This document shows, piece after piece, positions 2,488-62,748 of a stretch of 62,748 nt of DNA. Position 1 is the stretch's first letter. Every line of letters begins with the position of its first letter. The position numbers and the translations under genes were made by a program. The DNA is taken from positions 1 to 62,748 of the IMG/VR virus record IMGVR_UViG_3300037096_000044; one strand, written 5' to 3'. The notes below the pieces were generated by a model. It did not search any database. It saw only the letters and a program-made list of their open reading frames with translations, and had not been told where the DNA came from. Source of the DNA: a virus.

Positions 2488-3144
2488 ATGAAATACGAAT
2501 TTACCGGTGAAACCAAAATCGAGTTCGGTGTAAAGTTACACCGTATTCGAGCGACCGCCGCAATCGTCGCTTTCGGTATCGCTATCGGCGACCTCGGAGG
2601 GTGGATTGAGAAGGAAGATAATCTGTCGCAGGTGTACGGCGATGCGTGGGTGTCCGGCGATGCGTGGGTGTACGGCGATGCGCAGGTGTCCGGCGATGCG
2701 TGGGTGTACGGCGATGCGCAGGTGTCCGGCAATGCGCGGGTGTACGGCGATGCGCAGGTGTCCGGCGATGCGCGGGTGTACGGCGATGCGTGGGTGTACG
2801 GCAATGCGCGGGTGTCCGGCGATGCGTGGGTGTCCGGCGATGCGCGGGTGTACGGCGATGCGCGGGTGTACGGCGATGCGTGGGTGTCCGGCAATGCGCG
2901 GGTGTACGGCGATGGAATTGTTGATGCTTCGATCTTGGTCGCTTCCCGAAGCGACGGTTATACTTTCACTTGCGTAAAGACTAAATCGCTTCCGGTCATA
3001 ATCGCTGGTTGCCGATATTTTACCTTCTCGGAAGCCCGCGAGCATTGGGAGGAAACCCGGAAGGGAACTAAGCTCGGGGATGAATCGTTCGCCCTAATCG
3101 ATCATCTGGAGCGGATGGCGAAGCTACAAGGCTGGTGTAAATAA
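2488..3144 (+). CDS. Hexapeptide-repeat (left-handed beta-helix-like) protein with a non-repetitive C-terminal domain.
   Basis: Carries 15 consecutive G-[DN]-A-[WQR]-V-[SY] hexads. RBS ggagag lies upstream of the ATG. Confidence 0.75.
   Translation: MKYEFTGETKIEFGVKLHRIRATAAIVAFGIAIGDLGGWIEKEDNLSQVYGDAWVSGDAWVYGDAQVSGDAWVYGDAQVSGNARVYGDAQVSGDARVYGDAWVYGNARVSGDAWVSGDARVYGDARVYGDAWVSGNARVYGDGIVDASILVASRSDGYTFTCVKTKSLPVIIAGCRYFTFSEAREHWEETRKGTKLGDESFALIDHLERMAKLQGWCK
2638..2907 (+). repeat. Tandem repeat, 15 x 18 bp, in frame within CDS 2488-3144.
   Basis: The unit is ggc[g/a]atgcg[tg/ca/cg]ggtgt[c/a]c. Only 4 of the 18 nucleotide positions vary across all copies. Confidence 0.95.
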
Positions 3145-4645: not shown

Positions 4646-6088
4646 ATGGGCTACCTCCCGAAGATGAAAAGCCGACCGGCCCAAAAGGAGGCGCTGAAGC
4701 TCCTCCGGGGTAAGGAGGCGTTTGCACTTCTTATGGCGATGCGGACCGGGAAAACAAAAGTCGTGCTCGATGACTTCGGAGAGATGGAGCTAGCCGGAGA
4801 GGTTCAAGATCAACTCGTGATCGCTCCGGCGGGCGTTTATCGGACTTGGGAGACGGCCATTCGTGATCATATGTCGGAGGACATATTGGATCGCATGTTA
4901 GTTCATACTTGGAGTTCCGGTGCAGGAGTTGGAGAGCGCCGACGCCTCGAATATTTTATGTCAATAAAAGATAAGCGAAAGCCTCGCACGCTCTTAATGA
5001 ACGTGGAGGCTTTGTCCCGGCCCGGCGATGCGAGGAAATTGGTCAGCGAATATATCAAACAGCGCCGTGTCGTTACCAACGTGGACGAAAGCACAATTAT
5101 CAAAAACAATTCCGAACGGACCAAGTTTGTAACTACCGCTGTCCTTGCTGATTCTGATTATCGGCGCATCCTCTCCGGCCTCGCCACTCCGCGCTCGCCA
5201 CTGGACCTTTTCTATCAATTCCTTTTCCTTGATTGGCGCATACTTGGTCACAAGAGCTATTGGACCTTCCGCGCCGAGGTCGCGATTATGCGGACCGAGT
5301 TCTATGGCGGTCGCCGGGTTCCGATTGTTGTAGGATACCGCCCGGAAGCGGTGGAGGCGCTTAAGGAGAGAATTGCGCCTCACAGCTTTCGCGTTCCATT
5401 CCGTCCCAAGTATCCGAGCACCTATACCATCCGCGAAGTCGAGTTGACGAAGGAGCAAAAGAAGGCTTACGCGGAGATGAAGGAGTTTTCGACCACGAAC
5501 CTCGGGCGTGAGCGCCACGTTACCGCGACCGTGGTGATAGCTCAAATCATGAAGCTCCACCAAATCCTCCTCGGGCACGTAACCGACGAGAACCGGATTA
5601 TTCAAACGTTGCCAGAGAACCGAACGGCCGCACTACTCGGATTTTTAGAAGACTATGACGGCAAAGCCGTCATTTGGGCTCCTTACGATCATGACATTCG
5701 AAAGATCGCGGCGGCGCTTCGGAAAGAGTATGGTCCAAACTCAGTCGCATGTTTTTGGGGTGGAAATGCAAACACGCGGGAGGCTGAGGAAAAACGTTTC
5801 CTCAATGATCCAGTTTGCCGGTTCGAAGTCGCTACCCAAAGCGCCGGAGGCCGAGGCCGGACTTGGACGAATGCGCGGCTCGTGATCTATTACGCTTCGA
5901 CCGATAACCTAGAACACCGGGAGCAATCGGAGCAGCGCACGCTGGGTGAAGATAACAAATACCCAGCCGACTTCGTGGACTTCATCGTTCCGGGGACAGT
6001 GGAAACCAAAATCCTCGAAGCGCTCCGCAAGAAGATCGATATGAGTTCATTTATCAATGGCGACAATTACCGGGAGTGGATTATCTAA
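4646..6088 (+). CDS. SNF2/RAD54-family helicase.
   Basis: Contains MRTGKTKVVL (Walker A-like), NVDESTIIKN (DExx box), LSGLATPRSPLDLF and QSAGGRGRTW (motif VI). Confidence 0.85.
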   Translation: MGYLPKMKSRPAQKEALKLLRGKEAFALLMAMRTGKTKVVLDDFGEMELAGEVQDQLVIAPAGVYRTWETAIRDHMSEDILDRMLVHTWSSGAGVGERRRLEYFMSIKDKRKPRTLLMNVEALSRPGDARKLVSEYIKQRRVVTNVDESTIIKNNSERTKFVTTAVLADSDYRRILSGLATPRSPLDLFYQFLFLDWRILGHKSYWTFRAEVAIMRTEFYGGRRVPIVVGYRPEAVEALKERIAPHSFRVPFRPKYPSTYTIREVELTKEQKKAYAEMKEFSTTNLGRERHVTATVVIAQIMKLHQILLGHVTDENRIIQTLPENRTAALLGFLEDYDGKAVIWAPYDHDIRKIAAALRKEYGPNSVACFWGGNANTREAEEKRFLNDPVCRFEVATQSAGGRGRTWTNARLVIYYASTDNLEHREQSEQRTLGEDNKYPADFVDFIVPGTVETKILEALRKKIDMSSFINGDNYREWII

Positions 6089-11844: not shown

Positions 11845-12393
11845 TTAGAAGAGCGGAATAATGAAGAGCGTCACATTGCCCGTTTGCGCGGAGCCTTCGG
11901 CCGTTTGAACCCGGAAATATAAAGTCGCAGCATTGTAACTTTGCGTTCCTGCATTATTGATCGTAAAGCTTTGGGTATTGTTATTGGTATTCGCGGAGGC
12001 AGTGGAAACTGTAATCGCCGTCCCGGTCGTAACAATCGCCGTCCCGCCCGCCCCGGTCGCGGTGAACAAGCCACAAGTCGCGGTCGTTAGTGTTCCGGAA
12101 GCATCCGAAAGATAAAGAGCACTAACGAGATAGGTGGAGAACCCCGGAGGCAGCGGAATTATAATCGCATTATCGGTATTTGCGGCATTGAAATTTATTC
12201 CAGTCAGTGTAACACGGAGCCGGGCAATTTCAGCGAGCTTCGCAGCTGCCCACCCGCCTGCCGTTACGCCGTCTTGAACAACCAATCGGTTGTTTGTAGT
12301 ATCAATCGCGATTTCACCTTGAGCCCCGGTGAAAGTTGATACTTGAGCAATCGAACCGCGTCGGTGCTGGAGCTGGACTGCTGATGACGTCAT
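11845..12393 (-). CDS. Tail fibre protein with an Mtd-N/DUF2793-like N-terminus.
   Basis: The pattern LQHRRGSIAQVSTFTGAQGEIAIDTTNNRLVVQDGVTAGG is typical of phage fibre N-termini. Confidence 0.6.
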   Translation of the reverse strand: MTSSAVQLQHRRGSIAQVSTFTGAQGEIAIDTTNNRLVVQDGVTAGGWAAAKLAEIARLRVTLTGINFNAANTDNAIIIPLPPGFSTYLVSALYLSDASGTLTTATCGLFTATGAGGTAIVTTGTAITVSTASANTNNNTQSFTINNAGTQSYNAATLYFRVQTAEGSAQTGNVTLFIIPLF

Positions 12394-15300
12394 GGGTAAT
12401 CGCTCGATGAGTTGCCGGATACGGTCATATTGACAGGAGTGACATTATTGTTCTCGCCGGAAAGGTCGAAGCCTAATGCGGTAACGGATGAAGAGTTATT
12501 GTAAGCATAGAAACCATCTGCAACTCCTGTATAGGCTCCGAGGAACGTGATTGGGGCTAACGGCGATCCGCCCGCGAAGTCTGACGCGGGGAGAGCTTGA
12601 CCATCAATATAGTAAGTGTCTTCCATCTTTCCGTCGAAACCGAAACCAAAGGAATTGGTACCGCCGCCGGTCGAATAAAGATAAGCAATGACCACGATCC
12701 CACTTCCACCACCCCCGCTTCCATACAAACTTGCGCCACCACCGCCGCCGCCTGTATTTGGGGTTCCTGATACAGCAGGGCCGTTATTCCCCCCAGCGCC
12801 GCCGCCGCCAGAACCGCCAGCGCCGCCAGCGCCGCCAGCGCTAAGATCGCCCGCACCACCGCCGCCGCCGCCATAAATTACCGACGTGCCGGTAATTGAT
12901 GAAGATATCCCCGAGCCGCCAGCGCCGCCAATGTGACCGCTGCCCGTATTACCGCCGCCACCAGCGCCGCCGCCGCCACCAGCGTTAGTACTACCGGCTG
13001 CGCCTGCATTTCCTTGACCACCTGTGCCGCTTCCTCCCGAACCACCTGTGCCACCGCCACCGCCGCTTCCTCCCGTTGCACCATTGGTTGCTAGACCACC
13101 ACCACCGCCGCCACCAATAGCAGTTAACGGAGACGGAAATGCGATCTCGCTATTGCCACCGCTGTTTCCAAGAAGCGGTCCTGATGAACCTACCCCGAGC
13201 CCAGCGCCGCCGAGGCCCACCGTTATGGCGTAACTCCCGGCTGTTACTGATGTGCTGCCAGCGAGGACGCCGCCACCCCCACCGCCACCCGCTGCGTAAT
13301 GGCCACCACCACTACCACCGCCAGCGACGACCAAGTAGTTGATCACACTCACTGCACTCGCTGTGAATGTGCCCGATCCGGTGAATGTATGAATGCGGTA
13401 GCCACCCCCGGTCGTGATCGTACCGCCAGTTGACGCGCCCATACCCTGATTGACGCCCGCTCCGAGCGCCATATTAGTATTTTGCGGTGGCGAGGTCCCG
13501 GAAAGAGTTTCGGAGGAGCCATCGAGATAGAGCTTAACGCGGTTCGCAGCTGTCGCTTGAGTGGTATCAATAGCGACGCAAAGGTGGTGCCAAAGTTCAT
13601 CGCTGACAAGGCTCGAAGTCGTCAAGCTCATATACGTTCCGAGCGCGGTGGATGCGGCATTGACCGCGAACGAAGCGCCACCGACAAATTGGATGGCGAC
13701 TTGGTTCGCGGACGATCCTTGCTGCGCTAGGAATAAATTGGCAGTCTCGCTTGTCCCTCCGTATTTGAACCAAGTGGCAAAAGTGAATTTCTGCTGGTTC
13801 GCATTTGTATTCTGCGGGATGGTTGTGTATTGGTTTGCCGCCGCTCCGCTAGCTACACTTCGGAAGATCAACGATCCAGTTGAGATTGTGAAATAAACTG
13901 ACAGATCAATATCAATCAAAATATATGGCTGGGTGGTCGTGGTCGTTAAAAGACCGACGCCACCGCCGAAATCATCAACCGCCGTAATGGCACTATTGAC
14001 TTGTCCTAAATCAACGGATGCGACTTCGAGCGCTTGAGCTAACGGATGAGCGTATGCTAGAGCAGCAGGCGAGAAGGTATATGCAACACATTCCGCAAGC
14101 GTTTGAAGTCCTAAGCCATAGCCGTTATAAGCTTGAAACTTTAAATACAGCGTTTGATTAAGATACTGGGCCGGCAGATCATAGGTGAAAATTGAAGTGT
14201 CGAGCCGAGCAAAAGGGGCATTGACGGCATGGGATTGAATGACGGAGCCATATAGGCCACGGTTCAATCCGGTTAGAGCGTAGGTGTTTCCGGAAACGAG
14301 TGTGGCGGTTGTGTATGTTAGAAGCTCATCGTCTATAATACAAAGGTTCGCTGCTAACCCGGCTCCGGTCGGAGTAATTGAGGCAAGTGAGCCGTTGCTC
14401 TCTGAGAGATTGACGGTAAGTGTATCGACATTGTCCGGGTTCGTCCCAAGGTAAGTCGGAAGGCCTGTTGTTAACACGCCCATCCGGGCCGCGCCGGTTT
14501 GTTTCCCAATATTTTGGTAATTGGAGCCATCGAGCGAGAGCCAAACAAAACATCCGCCAAAATTTGGATCGAACGTCCCGCTAGGACCTCCCGAAATAGC
14601 AATCCAAACTTCCGGATTACTGCCGACCGGGGTGGAGCCTAGCATTGTGGCCGGAGGCTCGAACACAATCGGAGTATTGACCAGGTTCGGGACGATTTCA
14701 GCGTTGATAGCGAAACCAGAACCGGCTTGCGTCCCGTACTCGGGCGCGGAGACGGTGCCTAGGAACTCCTCTCCGGTAATTGTGATTGTGAAATCTTCGT
14801 TTTCTTGTATCTCAATAATCCGGACGCCTTGACGGTTTAAGCCTTGGGCGCTGTCGGTGATGGTGGCAATCGCCATAAGCTCTAGGATGAGCATAAAATG
14901 GCGGCCGACGGTCCACTGAAACGTCCGGATAATATTTTGCCGCAGCAGCTGGAGAACGGCGGATTGCTGCGCGGCGGAAGCGAGACAAAAGAAATGAGCT
15001 TGTTTTATATCGCTCGGACGCTCACGACCGAACGCGATGATGGATGCTTCGTCCTTTTGCTCGATGTCCACCGGATTGTAGTTATTGTTCCGGTCGAGGT
15101 ATTCGAGCTTAATATTGTTAAGGACTTGATCGCGCGATATCCGGATCGTCAAAAACGGGCTATCAGGGTTCGCGGTCCCGGTTCCAATTGTCCCTTGGTT
15201 CTTTAGGCAATCATCAATTGTGAAGTCATAAAGCGAATTGGTATTTGGGACATATGACGATGTAGCGGCCCAAGTATATTCGATAAGGACGGTTTGGCCA

Positions 15301-16337
15301 ATATCGCTTTGACTAAAATAATAGGTGCCGCCTTGCTCGTAATACGTTCCGACCGCGAGAGCGCCATTATAGCTTGTAACAGGAGTTAATGAACCGCCCG
15401 CTAGATAGGTGACGCCTTCATCTGCGACGAAGCTGCCGGCGTTACCAACTAGGATGGAAGGATAAGAGACGTTCGGAACAATATGGGTTTCGGTGATAGA
15501 TGTAACGGAGCCGAGCGTAACGGCGCTATCTCCATAAGGCTCCACGGTAAGGAAGCCGTATTGCCAGCACGCTACCGCGTTCGTGAACGTACACATGTCG
15601 GAAGCGTAGGAAGAGGCTTGGACTGCTGTAGCGAGCGCCGGAGAGACGACTAAACCGAGAGCCAACGTATAACTTTGCCAATCCGTTAGCGATCCTAGCC
15701 GATCAGCCGGAAAGCCGACACCATTATACCCATTCGTCAAGAATTGAGTGAATGCGATAGTAACATCACCGTCCGGTTGACCCGGTATCGCGGTGTTATT
15801 ATTTGAGAGAAGTTCAAAGGTGAAATTCGGAAGCGATGGATCAGTGCCAAGATAAAGATTTGCCGCGCCCATGTAAGCAATGCCGCGATAACCTTCCGCG
15901 TGAGATGGGTCGGCGCTCTCGGTATAGCTCCAAGTCGTTTGGGCGTAGTCTCCGAAGAACCATTCATAATTCGATGGAACTGTTGATTGACCGGTAAGCG
16001 GCGCGGCTTCGACCGCGTAAGCCGTTCCATTAACCCACATCTGTTCGAAAGCTGCGACGGGACCTTCACAAGCTGCTAAGATGAGTGTGGCATAATAAAC
16101 AGTCTCGGTTCCTCCGGGCGTCGAAAAAATGCCGCCTTTCCCTCCGCCTCCGCCAGCTGAGGCAACACTTTGCGAATTGAAACCGTAATAATCTATTAGG
16201 TTACAACCAATCCTGGTTTGACCTCCGAGGAAAAGAGTAAGCGGGACGCCTTGTAATGACGTATTAACGCGCAGCGCCGACGCGGGCGGTGTCGTTGTCT
16301 TTTGACTGCCGAATAAGCTTTGAAAGAAACGAGCCAC
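12390..16337 (-). CDS. Host-specificity / central tail fibre protein (GTA g15 'megatron'-like) with a LamG-like domain and a Gly-rich C-terminal region.
   Basis: 1315 aa, downstream of the hub and peptidase genes. A ConA/LamG-like block is present (WHHLCVAIDTT...VKLYLDGS), followed by long GGxGG tracts. Confidence 0.7.
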   Translation of the reverse strand: MARFFQSLFGSQKTTTPPASALRVNTSLQGVPLTLFLGGQTRIGCNLIDYYGFNSQSVASAGGGGGKGGIFSTPGGTETVYYATLILAACEGPVAAFEQMWVNGTAYAVEAAPLTGQSTVPSNYEWFFGDYAQTTWSYTESADPSHAEGYRGIAYMGAANLYLGTDPSLPNFTFELLSNNNTAIPGQPDGDVTIAFTQFLTNGYNGVGFPADRLGSLTDWQSYTLALGLVVSPALATAVQASSYASDMCTFTNAVACWQYGFLTVEPYGDSAVTLGSVTSITETHIVPNVSYPSILVGNAGSFVADEGVTYLAGGSLTPVTSYNGALAVGTYYEQGGTYYFSQSDIGQTVLIEYTWAATSSYVPNTNSLYDFTIDDCLKNQGTIGTGTANPDSPFLTIRISRDQVLNNIKLEYLDRNNNYNPVDIEQKDEASIIAFGRERPSDIKQAHFFCLASAAQQSAVLQLLRQNIIRTFQWTVGRHFMLILELMAIATITDSAQGLNRQGVRIIEIQENEDFTITITGEEFLGTVSAPEYGTQAGSGFAINAEIVPNLVNTPIVFEPPATMLGSTPVGSNPEVWIAISGGPSGTFDPNFGGCFVWLSLDGSNYQNIGKQTGAARMGVLTTGLPTYLGTNPDNVDTLTVNLSESNGSLASITPTGAGLAANLCIIDDELLTYTTATLVSGNTYALTGLNRGLYGSVIQSHAVNAPFARLDTSIFTYDLPAQYLNQTLYLKFQAYNGYGLGLQTLAECVAYTFSPAALAYAHPLAQALEVASVDLGQVNSAITAVDDFGGGVGLLTTTTTQPYILIDIDLSVYFTISTGSLIFRSVASGAAANQYTTIPQNTNANQQKFTFATWFKYGGTSETANLFLAQQGSSANQVAIQFVGGASFAVNAASTALGTYMSLTTSSLVSDELWHHLCVAIDTTQATAANRVKLYLDGSSETLSGTSPPQNTNMALGAGVNQGMGASTGGTITTGGGYRIHTFTGSGTFTASAVSVINYLVVAGGGSGGGHYAAGGGGGGGVLAGSTSVTAGSYAITVGLGGAGLGVGSSGPLLGNSGGNSEIAFPSPLTAIGGGGGGGLATNGATGGSGGGGGTGGSGGSGTGGQGNAGAAGSTNAGGGGGAGGGGNTGSGHIGGAGGSGISSSITGTSVIYGGGGGGAGDLSAGGAGGAGGSGGGGAGGNNGPAVSGTPNTGGGGGGASLYGSGGGGSGIVVIAYLYSTGGGTNSFGFGFDGKMEDTYYIDGQALPASDFAGGSPLAPITFLGAYTGVADGFYAYNNSSSVTALGFDLSGENNNVTPVNMTVSGNSSSDYP

Positions 16338-43573: not shown

Positions 43574-44815
43574 CTAGCGCCTGGGCCCAGCGACGCGATG
43601 ATTGCGCGCGGAAGCTCTCAGGCGCGTCACGGCGCGTTCAAGCTGTTGGTCATAGTCATCGGCCCACGCAACGGCGGCTTGTTCCTTATGCTCTACGATG
43701 GCCTGTCCGATGGCGCACCCGAGCGCGGCCGGCACCGCATTCCCTATCTGCATGTACTGAGAACTCATTGAGCCGCTGAATTTCCAGTCCGGCGCGAAGC
43801 CTTGAATGGCCGCGCATTCACGGACTGATAACGGTCTGACGACTTCGGGATGGCACAGTGCGCTCCCCTTGCGATTGGCGCGTCCGGTGATCGTCGGGGC
43901 CGGACGATTCCATGCGAGCCGACGATAAAATCCGGTCTTGCCGCCGCCCGCCGCGAAGGAACCGCCCATAGCCTTGCGTTGAAGTTTTCGCGGCAGCGAA
44001 CGCCAATTGCCGCCTTCCGGAACAAGCGCAAAATATTGTTCCACGTCCGGCGTATATTTTGCGCCTTTGCCGGGACGGCGTCGAAACTTCCAGATTTCAT
44101 CTTTCAGCACTCGGTAAGGCAGGAGCGCCGATGGACCATGCGTCGCCGACGGCAGTACAGGCGGCGAAAAATCGCGGGCACCAATCATCACAAACCGGAG
44201 ACGGTGTTGGGCCGCGCCGTAATCCGCAGCATCAAACACGCCGAAGGTCACGAAATATCCGAGGCCGCGAATGTCGGCGAGGATTTGGCGTACTGCCGAT
44301 CCCGACAATTCGTCCTCACTCAGCGGAGCATGATCTTCGTCGCCGCTGAGCCAAGAATGATCGTAAGTCTTAAGGCTCCAATGCTGACCCGGACGCTCGG
44401 AAATTGGCCGGTGACGGAGTGCGGCTGTCGTCAGATTAGCCACGTTTTCAAGGACAAAGCGGCGCGGTCTGACTTCGCCGATTAGGCGAAGATACTCATA
44501 GATCAAATTGCCGCGAGGATCGGTTAGGGCCGCCCGTTTGCCGCCGGGCGAAAAACTCTGGCATGGCGGGCCGCCGACCATCAAATCGACTTCGCCTTTG
44601 AAGCCACGGGCTTTGCGCAGCTTGTCGGCGTCAAGGCTCGCGATGCTGTCGCTGATAAGCTGGACGGACGGTCTGTTCAGCCGGATCGTTTCGCAGCAAT
44701 CGAAATCAATCTCATTCACGAGCGTCGGGAATATCCCGGCCTTCTCTAGTCCGAGATCGAGACCAAGCGCCCCTGAGAAAAACGACCAAACCTCTGGTTT
44801 TTTCGCGCGTGCCAT
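43574..44815 (-). CDS. dcm: DNA (cytosine-5) methyltransferase.
   Basis: Motifs are FSGALGLDLG (I), GGPPCQSFS (IV), LENV (VI), AQHRLRF (VIII) and GNAVP (X). Confidence 0.9.
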   Translation of the reverse strand: MARAKKPEVWSFFSGALGLDLGLEKAGIFPTLVNEIDFDCCETIRLNRPSVQLISDSIASLDADKLRKARGFKGEVDLMVGGPPCQSFSPGGKRAALTDPRGNLIYEYLRLIGEVRPRRFVLENVANLTTAALRHRPISERPGQHWSLKTYDHSWLSGDEDHAPLSEDELSGSAVRQILADIRGLGYFVTFGVFDAADYGAAQHRLRFVMIGARDFSPPVLPSATHGPSALLPYRVLKDEIWKFRRRPGKGAKYTPDVEQYFALVPEGGNWRSLPRKLQRKAMGGSFAAGGGKTGFYRRLAWNRPAPTITGRANRKGSALCHPEVVRPLSVRECAAIQGFAPDWKFSGSMSSQYMQIGNAVPAALGCAIGQAIVEHKEQAAVAWADDYDQQLERAVTRLRASARNHRVAGPRR

Positions 44816-49370: not shown

Positions 49371-50202
49371 GGCGACAGCAAAACCTACCGGACGTGCAAT
49401 AGCGAAGACCGGAGGCGGCGGAGTTCCCGCCCACCTTCAAAAAGTCAAGATGAGTGGAGCGGGAGTATCGACCGATACCTCCGATCTATTGATCCCGATG
49501 TGCCGCATCCTCCAACCGATGTCCCCGGAGGTCCAAAAGCGCGGCGCGACGTATATTAAAGGAGCCGAGCCGGGCGACATCTATATCAAGAACGCCGCCA
49601 ACCCGGTTCTTAAGGGCGAGGATGGTTTTCTCTTTCAGCCTTGCTACTTCTCGAAGGGCATTGTTGAGTGGCTACCGCGCGATAAGGGCGGCGGCGGCGG
49701 CGGCGGGTTCGTAATGTTGCACAAGGAGGAACCGGCGGACGCAATATCCGTTCCGAACCCGCAGAACCCGGAGCGCACCATGCGTATCCGGAAGAGTAAC
49801 AAGAATATCCTCGTGGAGACGCGATACCACGGCGGTTTCATTATCACCGACGGAACCCCGATGCCGGCCGTTATTCCCTTCGCTTCATCCGGGCACACCG
49901 TATCAAAGGCTTGGATGATGCTTATGAACTCGAAGATGGTATCGGGGGTGAAGGCCGACAGCTGGGCGGTCTATTACCGCTTCAAGACGAAGCTGAAGAC
50001 GGTCGGCCCGAATACGTGGTCCATCTTCGAAATTACAGATGGTGGGGAGGAAGACGAAGACGGCCTTCCCTCTACACTGTGGGTCCCCACGCTTGAAGAC
50101 TATGAGCGCGGCGCGGCGCTCGGTAAGTCGCTAGCGAGCGGCGCTCAACGCTTCGACGCAGCGGCAGCGGGCGACGAAGCCGCTGACGATGAGAAGATGT
50201 AA
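49363..50202 (+). CDS. Hypothetical DNA-metabolism-module protein with a Gly7 tract and an acidic C-terminal tail (possible ssDNA-binding or annealing role).
   Basis: 279 aa ending in AAGDEAADDEKM. The function is a guess from context and the acidic tail. Confidence 0.4.
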   Translation: MAKATAKPTGRAIAKTGGGGVPAHLQKVKMSGAGVSTDTSDLLIPMCRILQPMSPEVQKRGATYIKGAEPGDIYIKNAANPVLKGEDGFLFQPCYFSKGIVEWLPRDKGGGGGGGFVMLHKEEPADAISVPNPQNPERTMRIRKSNKNILVETRYHGGFIITDGTPMPAVIPFASSGHTVSKAWMMLMNSKMVSGVKADSWAVYYRFKTKLKTVGPNTWSIFEITDGGEEDEDGLPSTLWVPTLEDYERGAALGKSLASGAQRFDAAAAGDEAADDEKM

Positions 50203-50210
50203 AGGTCAAA

Positions 50211-50238
50211 GGGGAAACCCAATTGGGTTTCCCCTTTC
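50211..50238 (+). terminator. Rho-independent terminator.
   Basis: Perfect palindrome GGGGAAACCC-aatt-GGGTTTCCCC followed by ttt. Confidence 0.8.
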
Positions 50239-50347
50239 AGCTTCCGGTAGAAGAGGCGTTTCATCGGTGGGCGCGCCTCCCTCCTTCTGGCAGGTCACTC
50301 GGACCGGCACCTGTGGAAGAAAGCCGGTCCACCTAATTTAATGGATA

Positions 50348-50712
50348 CATGCTTATCCGGTTGCCACACACAGGAGCTAGATCATGAGCGGCTTGACGGA
50401 AGAACAGCTTGACGCACTAGGCATAAAACGGCCTGAAATCCCGGCCGACACGGTGGAGCACCAAGTGACGCCATCACAGCGGGCCTACGGGCTTCTGTGG
50501 CGCACATTTACGGACCTGCCGTTTGTTCACATGGCGCGCCGCGAATTGTTTGAGGCGCTGTCAAAAGAGGAACGGTATGCCGGGATCGCGTGGGCTATCG
50601 AGAAGTACGGCACCATGCCAACGCAGCAAATGATCGCTGCCGATATACAGGTCGGCCAGTTCCCCGAAAAATCCTACGGATAGTAGCTGTGTGTCTAAAC
50701 CGGATAAGCATG
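50348..50712 (+). mobile_element. Inverted-repeat-bracketed cassette 1 (365 bp), flanked by an 8-bp direct duplication AATGGATA.
   Basis: The L end is 50348-50373 (CATGCTTATCCGGTTGCCACACACAG). The R end is 50687-50712 (CTGTGTGTCTAAACCGGATAAGCATG). AATGGATA occurs at 50340-50347 and at 50713-50720. Confidence 0.7.
50384..50683 (+). CDS. Cassette 1 cargo: hypothetical 99-aa protein.
   Basis: RBS caggag lies at the inner edge of the L repeat. The stop is 4 nt before the R repeat. Confidence 0.6.
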   Translation: MSGLTEEQLDALGIKRPEIPADTVEHQVTPSQRAYGLLWRTFTDLPFVHMARRELFEALSKEERYAGIAWAIEKYGTMPTQQMIAADIQVGQFPEKSYG

Positions 50713-50713
50713 A

Positions 50714-50959
50714 ATGGATATGACAATGGCAGATGATCAAGCGCTTAGGATCGATATAAAACCGGGTGATGATGGCGGTGTCCCGACTGACCGCGAAAAG
50801 GCATCCCAGTACCGAACGAAGGCGACCATCCAGCTAACATCGCTTTGTAAGCTTCTCGATGAAGCGAAGGCGGACGGTTTCATCATCTCTTACGGAACCG
50901 GCGACAATGCTCAAGGCGAACAGGCCATCACCAAACTCGACATCTCGTTTGCGCCATGA
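50714..50959 (+). CDS. Hypothetical protein.
   Basis: Its ATG lies inside the right copy of the AATGGATA duplication. Confidence 0.5.
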   Translation: MDMTMADDQALRIDIKPGDDGGVPTDREKASQYRTKATIQLTSLCKLLDEAKADGFIISYGTGDNAQGEQAITKLDISFAP

Positions 50960-51135
50960 TAGTCCGTGAAGCCGGGTTAATCATCTTCAACTGCGACAAG
51001 TGTTCCGACTTCGTGGAGACGGAGGAGCGCGGCTTCGAGGAAGCGAAATTAAAGCTCGATGCTGAGAAGTGGCACGCCGTCCGCGTCGGACTAAACTGGG
51101 AACAGATTTGTCCGTCTTGTTGGAGCAAGTTATGA
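50956..51135 (+). CDS. Small CxxC...CxxC zinc-ribbon protein (59 aa).
   Basis: Sequence is MIVREAGLIIFNCDKCSDFVE...ICPSCWSKL, with ATGA overlaps at both ends. Confidence 0.45.
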   Translation: MIVREAGLIIFNCDKCSDFVETEERGFEEAKLKLDAEKWHAVRVGLNWEQICPSCWSKL

Positions 51136-51824
51136 CCGCCGAAGTAGCGTTATCGGTTCGTGAACAAATCCTAGCGTTGTGGCCCGATCACACCGGGCCG
51201 GAGATTGAGGCTATGTTAGCGAAGGAGTTGGGTTCGGCTAAACCGCGCTACATCTTTGGCGTAGTGCGGCGGGCACGAAGACGCGGCGACGCTAGAGCCA
51301 TCGAGAAACCGAAGGGGAAGATGAGCGAGTGGACGAAGGAGAGTAAGGACCGGCTGCGCGAACTCGCCGCGCCGGGCCACGATACGCTTAGCGATTATGA
51401 TATTGCGAATATCCTTAATAAAGAGTTTGGTACATCCTTCTCCCGTAATGCCATAATCGGAATGCGTGGAAGGATGCTACTTTTTAAGGCGCGGAAAGAA
51501 AGAAAACATCATGCGCGTGGCGAGTATCGCCCGCGCGCCATCCTTCAGCCGAAGGATAAGCCGGGCCAGAATTTGAATTTTCATTCTTGGCGCTCGCCTA
51601 AGCCGTCTAAGCCTCCAGTTCTTGTAGAGCCGAAAGAAGCTCAACAAGGTTTCCCGTATCGGGCGAGCCTTCTTGAGCTTAACAATTCGACTTGCCGGTG
51701 GCCGGTGTGGCCTCACTTCGTCGATCCTCCGGACCGCGAATATTTCTTTTGTGGCGAGCCGAGCGCGGACCTCGGAGCATCGAAACCATATTGTCCCTAT
51801 CACACGTCCCAATCGAGAGGCTAA
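51132..51824 (+). CDS. gcrA: GcrA-like cell-cycle/transcription regulator with a duplicated N-terminal HTH-like module.
   Basis: The N-terminal module is MSEWTKESKDRLRELAAPGH...SRNAIIGMRGRM, and an upstream copy reads REQILALWPDHTGPEIEAMLAKELG...IFGVVRRARRRG. The C-terminal signature is CRWPVW...FFCGEP...KPYCPYH. Confidence 0.7.
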   Translation: MTAEVALSVREQILALWPDHTGPEIEAMLAKELGSAKPRYIFGVVRRARRRGDARAIEKPKGKMSEWTKESKDRLRELAAPGHDTLSDYDIANILNKEFGTSFSRNAIIGMRGRMLLFKARKERKHHARGEYRPRAILQPKDKPGQNLNFHSWRSPKPSKPPVLVEPKEAQQGFPYRASLLELNNSTCRWPVWPHFVDPPDREYFFCGEPSADLGASKPYCPYHTSQSRG

Positions 51825-51938
51825 TACCATGGTCCTTAGATCGCGCATCGGCGTGATGGAGCCGGTAGGTATGTTGGTTGCTCTCCTACCTAAAGGCGCG
51901 ATTTGAGGGGCAACTCCTTGGCTGGGAGCCATAAATAT

Positions 51939-52664
51939 CATGCTTATCCGGTTGCCACACACAAACGCTGAGACCTACTAGATGTTGATGCGAACAAAAC
52001 CCAAAGCTCTTGACCTTTTCTGCTGTGCCGGCGGCGCGGGAATGGGCTTGTGGCAAGCCGGATTTGAGGTTGTCGGTGTTGATATTGAGCCGCAGCGCCG
52101 CTATCCGTTTGAGTTTCATCAAGCCGACGCTATGACGTTTCCGCTGGACGGCTTCGATTTCGTTTGGGCAAGTCCGCCTTGCCAAGGCTACAGCCATCTG
52201 ACGCCTAAAGATGCAAAAAAGAGATGGGTCAAGCTAATTCCGGCCATAAGGGCGCGCTTAGTCAAAGCCGGAGTGCCGTATTGCATCGAGAACGTGGTGG
52301 GTGCCCGCCAACAACTCGTAAGGCCGTGCCTGCTTTGCGGCTCCATGTTTGGCCTTCGGACACAACGACACCGGCTTTTTGAAACATCGTTTTCGACCGC
52401 TCCTCCAAGAACGTGCGACCACAGCCAAATTCCGCTGCTCGTCACTACAGCCAGCAAAGCGAGCCGAGAGAAGCGTTTTAAGTTGGGAATGCCCCCAAAG
52501 ACGGTAAAAAACGCCCCCCTAGCCTACGGAATTGATTGGATGGATTTCAACGGACTGAAAGAGGCGATACCACCCGCTTACGCCAAGTTCATCGGAACAG
52601 CCGCAATGGCATATATCAAACAGACACAAGCTGTAGGGCTGTGTGTCTAAACCGGATAAGCATG
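51939..52664 (+). mobile_element. Inverted-repeat-bracketed cassette 2 (726 bp).
   Basis: The L end is 51939-51963 and the R end is 52640-52664. Its inner L and R extensions are shared with cassette 3. GAAGGATT follows the R end at 52665-52672. Confidence 0.65.
51982..52650 (+). CDS. Cassette 2 cargo: compact DNA (cytosine-5) methyltransferase (222 aa).
   Basis: Contains DLFCCAGGAGMG (I), ASPPCQGYS (IV), IENV (VI), TQRHRLF (VIII) and a short target-recognition region. The last codons and the TAA stop lie inside the R repeat. Confidence 0.75.
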   Translation: MLMRTKPKALDLFCCAGGAGMGLWQAGFEVVGVDIEPQRRYPFEFHQADAMTFPLDGFDFVWASPPCQGYSHLTPKDAKKRWVKLIPAIRARLVKAGVPYCIENVVGARQQLVRPCLLCGSMFGLRTQRHRLFETSFSTAPPRTCDHSQIPLLVTTASKASREKRFKLGMPPKTVKNAPLAYGIDWMDFNGLKEAIPPAYAKFIGTAAMAYIKQTQAVGLCV

Positions 52665-52877
52665 GAAGGATTACCCCGGACCATGCGAAACATCATCGGA
52701 GGCGATATGCTCTTTTGGAGGCCGGAAGGCCCGCAACTAGAATACCGCGATCGCACGTTTTTCATTGCCGACCTCAATCCTGAGATTGAGATTAGGTGGG
52801 CCGTGACGCCGCGCCAGCTTCTCGGCATCGGCTTCAAGTGCATCGCCGCCGCAACCCGTTCCCTCTTGTCACTTTAG
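52662..52877 (+). CDS. Hypothetical protein (alternative start 52683).
   Basis: The first ATG is the terminal ATG of the cassette 2 R repeat. Confidence 0.45.
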   Translation: MEGLPRTMRNIIGGDMLFWRPEGPQLEYRDRTFFIADLNPEIEIRWAVTPRQLLGIGFKCIAAATRSLLSL

Positions 52878-52884
52878 GCCCAAA

Positions 52885-53106
52885 ATGAACCCGGATCAGA
52901 CCATCAACCTAAATCAGAACGCCGCCGACTGCATCAAGGCAGCCAGCAAATTCGGTGAGACGATCTACACCAATATCTGCAACGGGAATGTTTCTCACGT
53001 TGCATGGGGCGGCGTCGATTGGCTTGCCATGATAGGCATATCGAGCTTTGGCCTAGCCTTCACGGCGCTGCTTTTCAGCTTCGCGATTATGGTCATTCGA
53101 GATTGA
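52885..53106 (+). CDS. Small membrane protein.
   Basis: C-terminal hydrophobic segments WLAMIGISSFGLAFTALLFSFAIMVI. Confidence 0.5.
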   Translation: MNPDQTINLNQNAADCIKAASKFGETIYTNICNGNVSHVAWGGVDWLAMIGISSFGLAFTALLFSFAIMVIRD

Positions 53107-53112
53107 AGGATT

Positions 53113-53471
53113 CATGCTTATCCGGTTGCCGCACACAAACGCTGAGACCTACTAGATGCTGAGGGCACTATGAAGATCATCGTTAACGGCGAGCCGCACG
53201 AATACGCGCACAAAAAGATAGGCTACGACGAGGTCGTTAAGCTGGCGACCGGCAAAAACTCGCAAGAACTGACGGTTACCTATTTTTGGCGCAGCCATCT
53301 GCATGATTTGACCCGCAACGGTTCGCTTTCGCCGGGTGTTTGGAAGCCCAGGAGCCTTGGCAATCTTCGCAAGACAATCGAGGTTGCCGAAGGCATGGAG
53401 TTCACCGCAGTTTGGACAGGTGCAGCGTGACCACAAGATGTAGGGCTGTGTGTCTAAACCGGATAAGCATG
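53113..53471 (+). mobile_element. Inverted-repeat-bracketed cassette 3 (359 bp).
   Basis: The L end is 53113-53137 (one A-to-G change) and the R end is 53447-53471. GAAGGATT precedes the L end at 53105-53112. Confidence 0.65.
53170..53430 (+). CDS. Cassette 3 cargo: beta-grasp (ThiS/MoaD/multiubiquitin-like) small protein.
   Basis: Contains MKIIVNGEPHEYAHKKIGYDEVVKLA...TVTY...GMEFTAV. There is no C-terminal Gly-Gly. It is preceded by a 5-codon uORF (MLRAL) whose stop overlaps this ATG. Confidence 0.45.
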   Translation: MKIIVNGEPHEYAHKKIGYDEVVKLATGKNSQELTVTYFWRSHLHDLTRNGSLSPGVWKPRSLGNLRKTIEVAEGMEFTAVWTGAA

Positions 53472-53544
53472 AATGGGATGGTTGGTGGCCCGCTGATGTT
53501 GCGGCGTAAACCGTCGAACTCCTGATGAATAAGGAAACTGGAAC

Positions 53545-53703
53545 GTGATCGACAACTGGCATGGCAAGCCTATCGGCGATCTCACGCGCGGCGAACTTAT
53601 TGACGCGCTAGAGTGGTGTGTCGGAAAACTGCGCGAATACCAACTCACCGAATTACGCCGAGCAACAAACCCATTGCGCGGACTTCCTCTGGAACGGAAA
53701 TGA
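53545..53703 (+). CDS. Small hypothetical protein (52 aa, GTG start).
   Basis: RBS aaggaa lies upstream. It is below the track cutoff. Confidence 0.3.
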   Translation: MIDNWHGKPIGDLTRGELIDALEWCVGKLREYQLTELRRATNPLRGLPLERK

Positions 53704-62251: not shown

Positions 62252-62748
62252 GAGCGCCCAAAAAGTTTGTTACCGACATCCCCGAGTTCTTGCAACGGAA
62301 GCCGGATGGCGCTTTGGCTTTCCCAAAAGCGAAGGCCCCGAAAGTTGAACTGGTGAAAGCTATCGCACCAGTTCAACTCCCCGCGCTGCCGGAAGGATTG
62401 CGCTGGGCCGCGACCGAGAGCGAAGAGACGGGAAGCTCCGCCGAACTCGGCATCGTTCCGAGGCGGTGGGCGAGCGACCCGAGCATCGCCCGGTTCCTCG
62501 CTCTAGCGATCCGCGATAAGGGAGAGAGGAAGAAGGCTTCGCTCGAAAGCTTCAAAGCGTCGATGGCCGCGAAGAAGGCGGCGGAGCCAAAAGTAGCGAA
62601 GCCGTCTTTCGGAACCGGCGTTAAATTCCGTATCCTCCGGATGCGCAACCCGGATACAAAAGCCGGGAAACGCCACACCGAGATGGCCGAATATCTAAAG
62701 GCCCATCCGAATTGCGACGTGGCGGAGATGTTGGCGGGAGTTAAGAGT
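62248..62748 (+). CDS. 5' part of the wrap-around gene, which continues at base 128 of the window.
   Basis: The GTG start overlaps the upstream stop (GTGA). The frame stays open to the window end and is in phase with ORF 20..352. Confidence 0.6.
   Translation, partial: MRAPKKFVTDIPEFLQRKPDGALAFPKAKAPKVELVKAIAPVQLPALPEGLRWAATESEETGSSAELGIVPRRWASDPSIARFLALAIRDKGERKKASLESFKASMAAKKAAEPKVAKPSFGTGVKFRILRMRNPDTKAGKRHTEMAEYLKAHPNCDVAEMLAGVKS
62622..62748. repeat. Terminal direct repeat, copy 2 (identical to 1-127).
   Basis: Read directly. Confidence 0.95.

Follow-up and report, generated by a model that had tools for sequence, protein, structure and literature searches.

The mobile insertion cassette (mic) is defined by two inverted repeats (IRs), the lack of a transposase and a target duplication (PMC3913671). 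Insertion sequences (ISs) of the IS1595 family are characterized by 8-bp target-site duplications (TSDs) and by the Zn_ribbon_IS1595 and DDE_Tnp_IS1595 domains (PMC8101967). In mycobacteriophages, MPME1 and MPME2 are elements of approximately 440 bp with inverted repeats and one small open reading frame (ORF), which are polymorphic among close phage genomes and carry an unexplained 6-bp sequence added next to IR-L, the target not being duplicated (PMC3029335). The locus discussed here is a 365-bp unit, named cassette 1, with AATGGATA directly outside both of its ends. It combines two IS-type inverted repeats around a passenger gene, no transposase and a target duplication, and the AATGGATA repeat is read as the transposition footprint of a non-autonomous IS1595-family cassette, with a probability of approximately 0.93.

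The whole stretch of DNA that was analysed (the window, 62,748 nucleotides) is a complete tailed-phage genome of 62,621 bp plus a 127-bp assembly overlap, the latter being an exact terminal direct repeat (1–127 and 62622–62748) of a circular or terminally redundant genome. The phage encodes terminase, portal, head protease, tail, DNA polymerase, primase and helicase, and three cassettes are found among its small early-region genes. The gene directly preceding cassette 2 (51135–51824; 445–1137 in L120, Pfam GcrA) encodes a GcrA-like regulator, which suggests an alphaproteobacterial host; a cassette similar to cassette 1 is also found just downstream of a GcrA gene in L159/L160. Among other features of the genome, a 413-aa gene called C5 DNA methylase in Logan contig L119 probably corresponds, by length match only, to window positions 43574–44815, and a 218-aa ORF (2488–3144, + strand) contains 16 tandem 18-nt repeats (2627–2914) encoding hexapeptides of the type (V/A)(Y/S)GDA(W/Q/R). 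The 1315-aa ORF at 12390–16337 (− strand), with GC-rich runs of 9-nt periodicity (12703–13334) and Gly-rich repeats, probably encodes a tail-fibre-like protein.

Cassette 1 occupies positions 50348–50712, the left and right copies of AATGGATA being found at 50340–50347 and 50713–50720, respectively (both + strand). Its ends are CATGCTTATCCGGTTGCCACACACAG and the reverse complement of CATGCTTATCCGGTTTAGACACACAG, 26 nt each, with mismatches at positions 16–18 only. The left, gene-proximal, terminal inverted repeat (50348–50373, + strand) runs into GGAG (50373–50376), and the right, gene-distal, one (50687–50712, − strand) is the TAGA variant and is complementary to the left in 23 of the 26 positions; the repeat is the putative binding and cleavage site of a transposase. 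The bases that border the two copies of AATGGATA are unlike on both sides (5′, t versus g; 3′, c versus t), so that the repeated sequence measures 8 bp and no more. The downstream 81-aa phage gene (50714–50959) takes its ATG (50714) from the right copy, a start also chosen by an independent gene caller (27–272 in L120), and the duplication, by regenerating this start codon, leaves the gene intact. The ATG of the left copy (50341) opens a 23-codon ORF, which reads MDTCLSGCHTQELDHERLDGRTA up to its stop and runs into the inverted repeat. Both junctions are reproduced in a separate Logan assembly of SRR13689538, the contigs of which break inside the repeats, as a dispersed repeat would predict. 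Thus, the anatomy described in the first-pass annotation, namely the position and sequence of the unit and of the AATGGATA copies, a match ending at 8 bp, a right copy supplying the downstream ATG and a left copy starting a 23-codon remnant, was reproduced in full.

Between the repeats, and in the same orientation as the flanking genes, a 99-aa cargo ORF (50384–50683, + strand) takes up 81% of the element length. No match for its product was found in Pfam, NCBIfam or PHROGs, its AlphaFold model (helical, pLDDT 72) has no PDB match at E ≤ 0.001, and homologues form only three clusters among 5.8 billion proteins. One homologue (86% aa identity) is carried by a fossil copy of the element (2949–3330 in L155–L157) with the long type of left arm, the right end of which is truncated after ...GTGTCTAAA, the terminal 13 nt (CCGGATAAGCATG) being missing; this copy is presumably immobilised. 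Another homologue, 50% identical, is found without repeats in L158. The GGAG of the left arm (50373–50376) is the likely ribosome-binding site of the cargo, and a sigma-70 promoter scan of positions 50150–53600 returned no site. By taking into account the orientation of the cargo, its own GGAG and the lack of a consensus promoter, the gene would probably be expressed by read-through of a phage transcript.

The end motif occurs in the window exactly six times, with none expected by chance, and delimits three co-oriented cassettes. A 25-nt pattern of the end was used as the search key for the family. Among IMG/VR viral contigs it was found in at least 118 stretches, compared with 32 stretches among 185,579 bacterial and archaeal species (one genome each); the genome matches are mostly to Hyphomicrobiales or other Alphaproteobacteria metagenome-assembled genomes, and at least one of the 32 stretches is the same contig as a viral match. 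In GenBank phage records neither the left arm nor a close transposase was found. The family appears to be largely confined to phages, and both its setting and its scale are apparently undescribed: the accessible literature (most subscription journals being outside reach) contained no description of phage-borne cargo elements of the IS1595-derived, MIC or MITE kind, and three papers considered as earlier descriptions (PMC7468147, PMC10370329 and PMC9229222) turned out on checking to be unrelated.

The fetched loci contained 321 ends in 127 convergent pairs, which correspond to 110 non-redundant insertions of 171–2685 bp. An exact 8-bp duplication is present directly outside the termini in 77 of the 110 insertions, and a match of seven of the eight positions in four more, with no match (0/110) in the control formed by the next 8-mers outward (8-bp shift). 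Other copies of the element, which the first-pass annotation had proposed to inspect for 8-bp duplications, do carry them in the majority of cases. The 77 exact duplications represent 74 different sequences with 31% GC, versus 56% in the flanks, and yield a palindromic target consensus, T-n-[A-W-W-K-R-W-W-T]-n-A, most of which is fitted by AATGGATA. No duplication is found in 29 of the 110 insertions (about 26%), nor individually in two of the three window cassettes, which indicates that recombination or rearrangement at the elements is also common. By a crude and noisy ORF-based test, insertions lie at gene boundaries in 43 of 71 cases, and the cargo is co-oriented in 20 cases versus 8.

In most elements a single ORF, with its start towards the GCCA-type end and its stop towards the TAGA-type end, covers 75–95% of the length. 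Conservation of the left arm extends over approximately 50 nt (CATGCTTATCCGGTTGCCACACACAAACGCTGAGACCTACTAGATGTTGA), beyond which the cargo is unrelated; in its short variant, which is that of cassette 1, the inverted repeat is followed by GGAGCTAGATC and then by the cargo ATG. The right arm, of approximately 40–41 nt, contains TAA stops in two reading frames. Throughout the family (L001–L152) unrelated cargos share their starting position, directly behind ...CTAGATGTTGA of the left arm, and the distance of their ends from the right terminus is 5, 13–14, 28–29 or 41 nt. Both arms have their counterpart in the long imperfect inverted repeats of the parental IS. The 110 cargo ORFs fall into 86 clusters, of which 70 are singletons, and only four are transposases; DNA methyltransferases of at least five Pfam classes, Mom, NADAR, Fic, RlaP, a PAPS-reductase PHROG, TnpB and Multi_ubiq were recognized, and most of the products have no known function. 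In two cases (1253–2408 in L018 and 3703–4850 in L060) a TnpB of 357–367 aa (OrfB_IS605 plus Cas12f1-like TNB) is the sole cargo between IS1595-type inverted repeats, its stop codon being approximately 36 nt from the terminus, with no obvious room for the usual guide-RNA or right-end region; the gene of an RNA-guided nuclease is thus found within a cassette of the DDE type. In L075 (3004–3040), two tandem elements are exactly 8 bp apart (R end-ATATATTT-L end), which may reflect repeated use of one target site or else a junction of the tandem or circle type.

The movement of cassette 1 as a unit is documented by a copy in L003, an unrelated 30-kb phage contig with flanks unlike those of the window. 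The copy has the same length, is identical in 358 of 365 positions (98%) over both arms and is flanked by a duplication of its own, CTATATTT. Therefore, AATGGATA is not part of the repeat, and the possibility that it belonged to a longer sequence accompanying every copy, raised in the first-pass annotation as what would refute a target duplication, does not hold. Unoccupied sites were found for two other family insertions. At the position of a 506-bp element of L010, which is flanked by ATCCAAAT and ATCCAAAC, the related L109 carries only one ATCCAAAC; in the metagenomic contig L153, one copy of GAAGGATT lies between two genes, named B and A, discussed below. For cassette 1 itself, the predicted empty site cctaatttAATGGATAtgacaatgg had no exact match in metagenome and viral contigs, so that the empty-site check proposed in the first-pass annotation is supportive through other insertions of the family. 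Searches with flanking proteins in viral and metagenome contigs returned no relatives of the window phage, megablast of 48.5–55.5 kb versus GenBank phages gave no match, and exact-protein look-ups of the flanking genes returned only Logan contigs of the same sample. The empty-site search was thus uninformative because the collections hold no close relative of the phage.

Neither tblastn nor a custom HMM search detected an IS1595-type transposase in the window, so cassettes 1–3 are non-autonomous, that is, IS derivatives rather than ISs. The cognate enzyme was recognized in family copies of 1.3–2.3 kb, which have the same ends and 8-bp duplications of their own (ATTCACTT for L038 3979–5875; TTCGCAAT for L025 2423–4390) and encode a 349–357-aa protein matching DDE_Tnp_IS1595 (7e-32), Zn_ribbon_IS1595 (2e-12) and NCBIfam NF033547 (1e-53). 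A transposase with both domains is thus found between the ends in the long relatives L038 (349 aa, 4786–5835), L025, L010 and L062, and not in the window cassettes. The closest named IS is ISAcr1 (63% aa identity of the transposase), a copy of which in plasmid NC_015181 (L154) has the ends CTTGCCTATCCGGTTGAC...CCTACTAGATC and the 8-bp duplication GAATCAGC; the ends of cassette 2, CATGCTTATCCGGTTGCC...CCTACTAGATG, have the same terminal and subterminal architecture. The long-copy transposase has a recognizable H-x6-K third catalytic signature, and the ends (nnnGCnTATC) together with its D-D-H-x6-K signature fit a probable assignment to the ISSod11 group of the IS1595 family. Seven viral loci contain both an autonomous copy and a cassette within the same approximately 14 kb, which indicates that phages can themselves be a source of the enzyme. 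A second IS1595-family transposase of approximately 310 aa, 27–29% identical to the cassette-cognate one and with an E-x6-K signature (NF033547, E = 9e-62), is encoded 1–5 kb from cassettes in L005 (10024–10972), L024 (5677–6471), L027 (6809–7684), L085 (6322–7264), L091 and L122; no flanking inverted repeats are detectable, and the gene could represent either a domesticated copy or a resident helper.

Taken together, the family duplications, the L003 copy, the two empty sites and the transposase family support the initial proposal of a target-site duplication generated by transposition with 8-bp staggered cleavage, against which three other explanations were weighed. The first, judged very improbable, maintains that the AATGGATA duplication was made by an earlier family member, into which the present cargo was later swapped by homologous recombination through the arms. 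The conservation of the arms (50 nt on the left, approximately 41 nt on the right) across unrelated cargos would allow it, the elements without duplication testify that recombination at elements occurs, and the same cargo is found with a short left arm in the window and in L003 and with a long one in L155–L157. However, the 98% identity of the L003 copy over all 365 bp, together with its own perfect duplication, is the prediction of whole-unit transposition, and even after a swap the 8-bp footprint would still stem from transposition of a family member. A site-specific recombination cassette, integron- or lox-like, in which a circle with an R-8 bp-L site undergoes strand exchange within the 8-bp overlap, has still poorer prospects. 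The two ends plus 8 bp would indeed form an inverted repeat with an 8-bp spacer, as in the abutted R-ATATATTT-L junction of L075, and cargo between arms of fixed length is typical of cassette systems, but the empty sites of L109 and L153 contain no end-like sequence, the 74 different 8-mers are at odds with recombinases that need matching overlaps, the insertions are dispersed instead of arrayed at one attachment site, and the one enzyme found between such ends, a DDE transposase, belongs to a family with characteristic 8-bp TSDs. That the repeat arose by chance, or is a fixed non-mobile regulatory palindrome flanking genes, can be dismissed, despite Shine-Dalgarno-like flanks and an AATGG that begins the right flank of both cassette 1 and cassette 3, because an 8-mer match at fixed positions has a probability of 1.6e-5, the AATGGATA pair is the single such match at an offset of 373 in 62,367 window positions, flanks differ among copies, L003 included, the family-wide duplication counts speak against it as well, and the recurrence of AATGG is explained by the measured target preference.

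Cassette 1 is best explained as a mobile insertion cassette derived from an IS1595-family IS of the ISAcr1-like type, the transposase gene of which has been replaced by the single 99-aa passenger gene between the terminal inverted repeats. In the proposed mechanism, a DDE transposase of the IS1595 family with an N-terminal zinc ribbon, supplied in trans, would bind the repeats and cleave at the CATG termini; the shared ends suggest this enzyme, which could come from the host, from a prophage or from an autonomous copy carried by a co-infecting phage. The enzyme would then transfer the element into a target cleaved with an 8-bp stagger, and gap repair would produce the AATGGATA duplication. The presumed target, at the start codon of the 81-aa gene, is AT-rich and in keeping with the palindromic preference of the family. 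The mode of transposition could be either cut-and-paste or copy-in (replicative).

The other two window cassettes have the same ends. Cassette 2 (726 bp, 51939–52664, + strand), with a 50-nt left arm and a right arm of approximately 40 nt, carries a 222-aa C5 DNA-methylase-like ORF (51982–52650) and is flanked by ATAAATAT on the left and GAAGGATT on the right. Cassette 3 (359 bp, 53113–53471, + strand), the cargo of which is an 86-aa ORF (53170–53430, Pfam Multi_ubiq), is flanked by GAAGGATT on the left and AATGGGAT on the right, so that neither has its own duplication. The 448-bp segment between them (52665–53112, + strand) has GAAGGATT at each end and contains gene A (64 aa, 52683–52877), joined to gene B (73 aa, 52885–53106) by the junction TTAGGCC (junction j, 52874–52880). 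In L153 (JGI 3300037242, 799–1260), gene B (222/222 nt identical) directly precedes gene A (191/195 nt), the joint being tcgcgattatggtcattcgagatt-GAAGGATT-accccggaccatgcgaaacatcatcgga, namely the left flank of window cassette 3, one 8-mer, and the right flank of cassette 2. The window segment is, thus, a circular permutation of the B-GAAGGATT-A arrangement of L153, the remainder of which has no homology to the window. With respect to the L153 empty site, the 'insert' of the window extends around the circle from the left end of cassette 3 to the right end of cassette 2; that is, the whole phage genome lies between two outward-facing ends with a perfect 8-bp duplication. The TTAGGCC joint is a 5–7-nt microhomology shared, in L153, by the sequence that follows A and the sequence that precedes B.

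The simplest reading of this arrangement would be that an ancestral phage genome was fused with an L153-like genome through the elements, and that a microhomology deletion followed; removal of the redundant genome after the fusion would leave the captured 440-bp A-B patch. Homologous recombination between an element at GAAGGATT and a phage element is credited with close to an even chance of having produced the fusion, and it requires a parental element devoid of duplication, as are approximately 26% of the family members. Action of the transposase on the facing ends, R of cassette 2 and L of cassette 3, is also considered a serious candidate, although it too falls short of even odds; it explains the loss of one duplication copy by each cassette as well as the unlike outer flanks, and an abutted R-8 bp-L junction exists in L075. 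Other scenarios for the fusion are considered improbable.

Insertion sequences are generally held to be rare in phage genomes, and the gain of single 'moron'-type genes by phages is mostly ascribed to illegitimate or homologous recombination. The cassette family offers a concrete, testable vehicle for phage-to-phage gene flow, and the 25-nt end key can be used to mine phage accessory and counter-defence genes from metagenomes, many of the cargos being genes for DNA modification, of kinds typical of anti-restriction functions. Phage genomes are also rearranged by the elements, which serve as portable stretches of homology or as transposition ends. A broader proposal is put forward tentatively, with the odds on balance against it: that IS1595-derived single-gene cassettes form a phage-adapted gene shuttle, and that pairs of them also act as the ends of giant transposons, the latter idea being suggested by the C2-GAAGGATT-A-B-GAAGGATT-C3 structure and by the L153 empty site. 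If this were true, the shuttle would be a main route of accessory and counter-defence gene exchange among phages of soil and freshwater Alphaproteobacteria, with methyltransferases of at least five classes, Mom, NADAR, Fic and TnpB swapped at fixed arm boundaries, and cassette pairs would fuse a whole phage genome with another replicon and capture genes.

Comparison with the described systems makes cassette 1 a mobile insertion cassette, by function as well as by definition, and sets it apart from autonomous ISs, MITEs, MPMEs and integron cassettes. With IS1595/ISAcr1-like ISs they share the 8-bp target duplication and the end nnTGCnTATCCGGTTG with the subterminal CCTACTAGAT motif, as in the ISAcr1 copy, but the window cassettes have one passenger ORF, instead of a transposase, between the ends. 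With MICs, such as MIC231 of Bacillus cereus, related to IS231, mic-qnrD and mic-qnrS2, they have in common passenger gene(s) and the presumption that the cognate IS transposase mobilises them in trans; they differ in that they derive from IS1595 and not from IS4/IS231, reside in phage genomes rather than in chromosomes or plasmids, hold at least 86 unrelated cargo clusters between near-identical arms, and carry, in the window family, phage accessory or counter-defence-type cargo rather than resistance genes. Cassette 1 is not a MITE, which is short and non-coding, since it is coding, and only a few family copies of 171–192 bp are MITE-like. The MPMEs are likewise ultra-small phage elements with inverted repeats and a single small ORF, but an identity with them is ruled out by the 8-bp duplication, the variable size (171–2685 bp) and the variable cargo, the MPME ORF being fixed and the repeats and hosts unrelated. 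Integron gene cassettes resemble the family as single promoter-less genes that behave as mobile units, with conserved boundaries and a diverse cargo pool; they are ruled out by the 74 insertion-site 8-mers, the dispersed elements, the repeat-free empty sites, the DDE transposase and the lack of any attC/attI logic. In mechanism the cassettes are of a known kind, and what appears to be new is the phage setting, the scale, the number of cargos and the signs of genome rearrangement.
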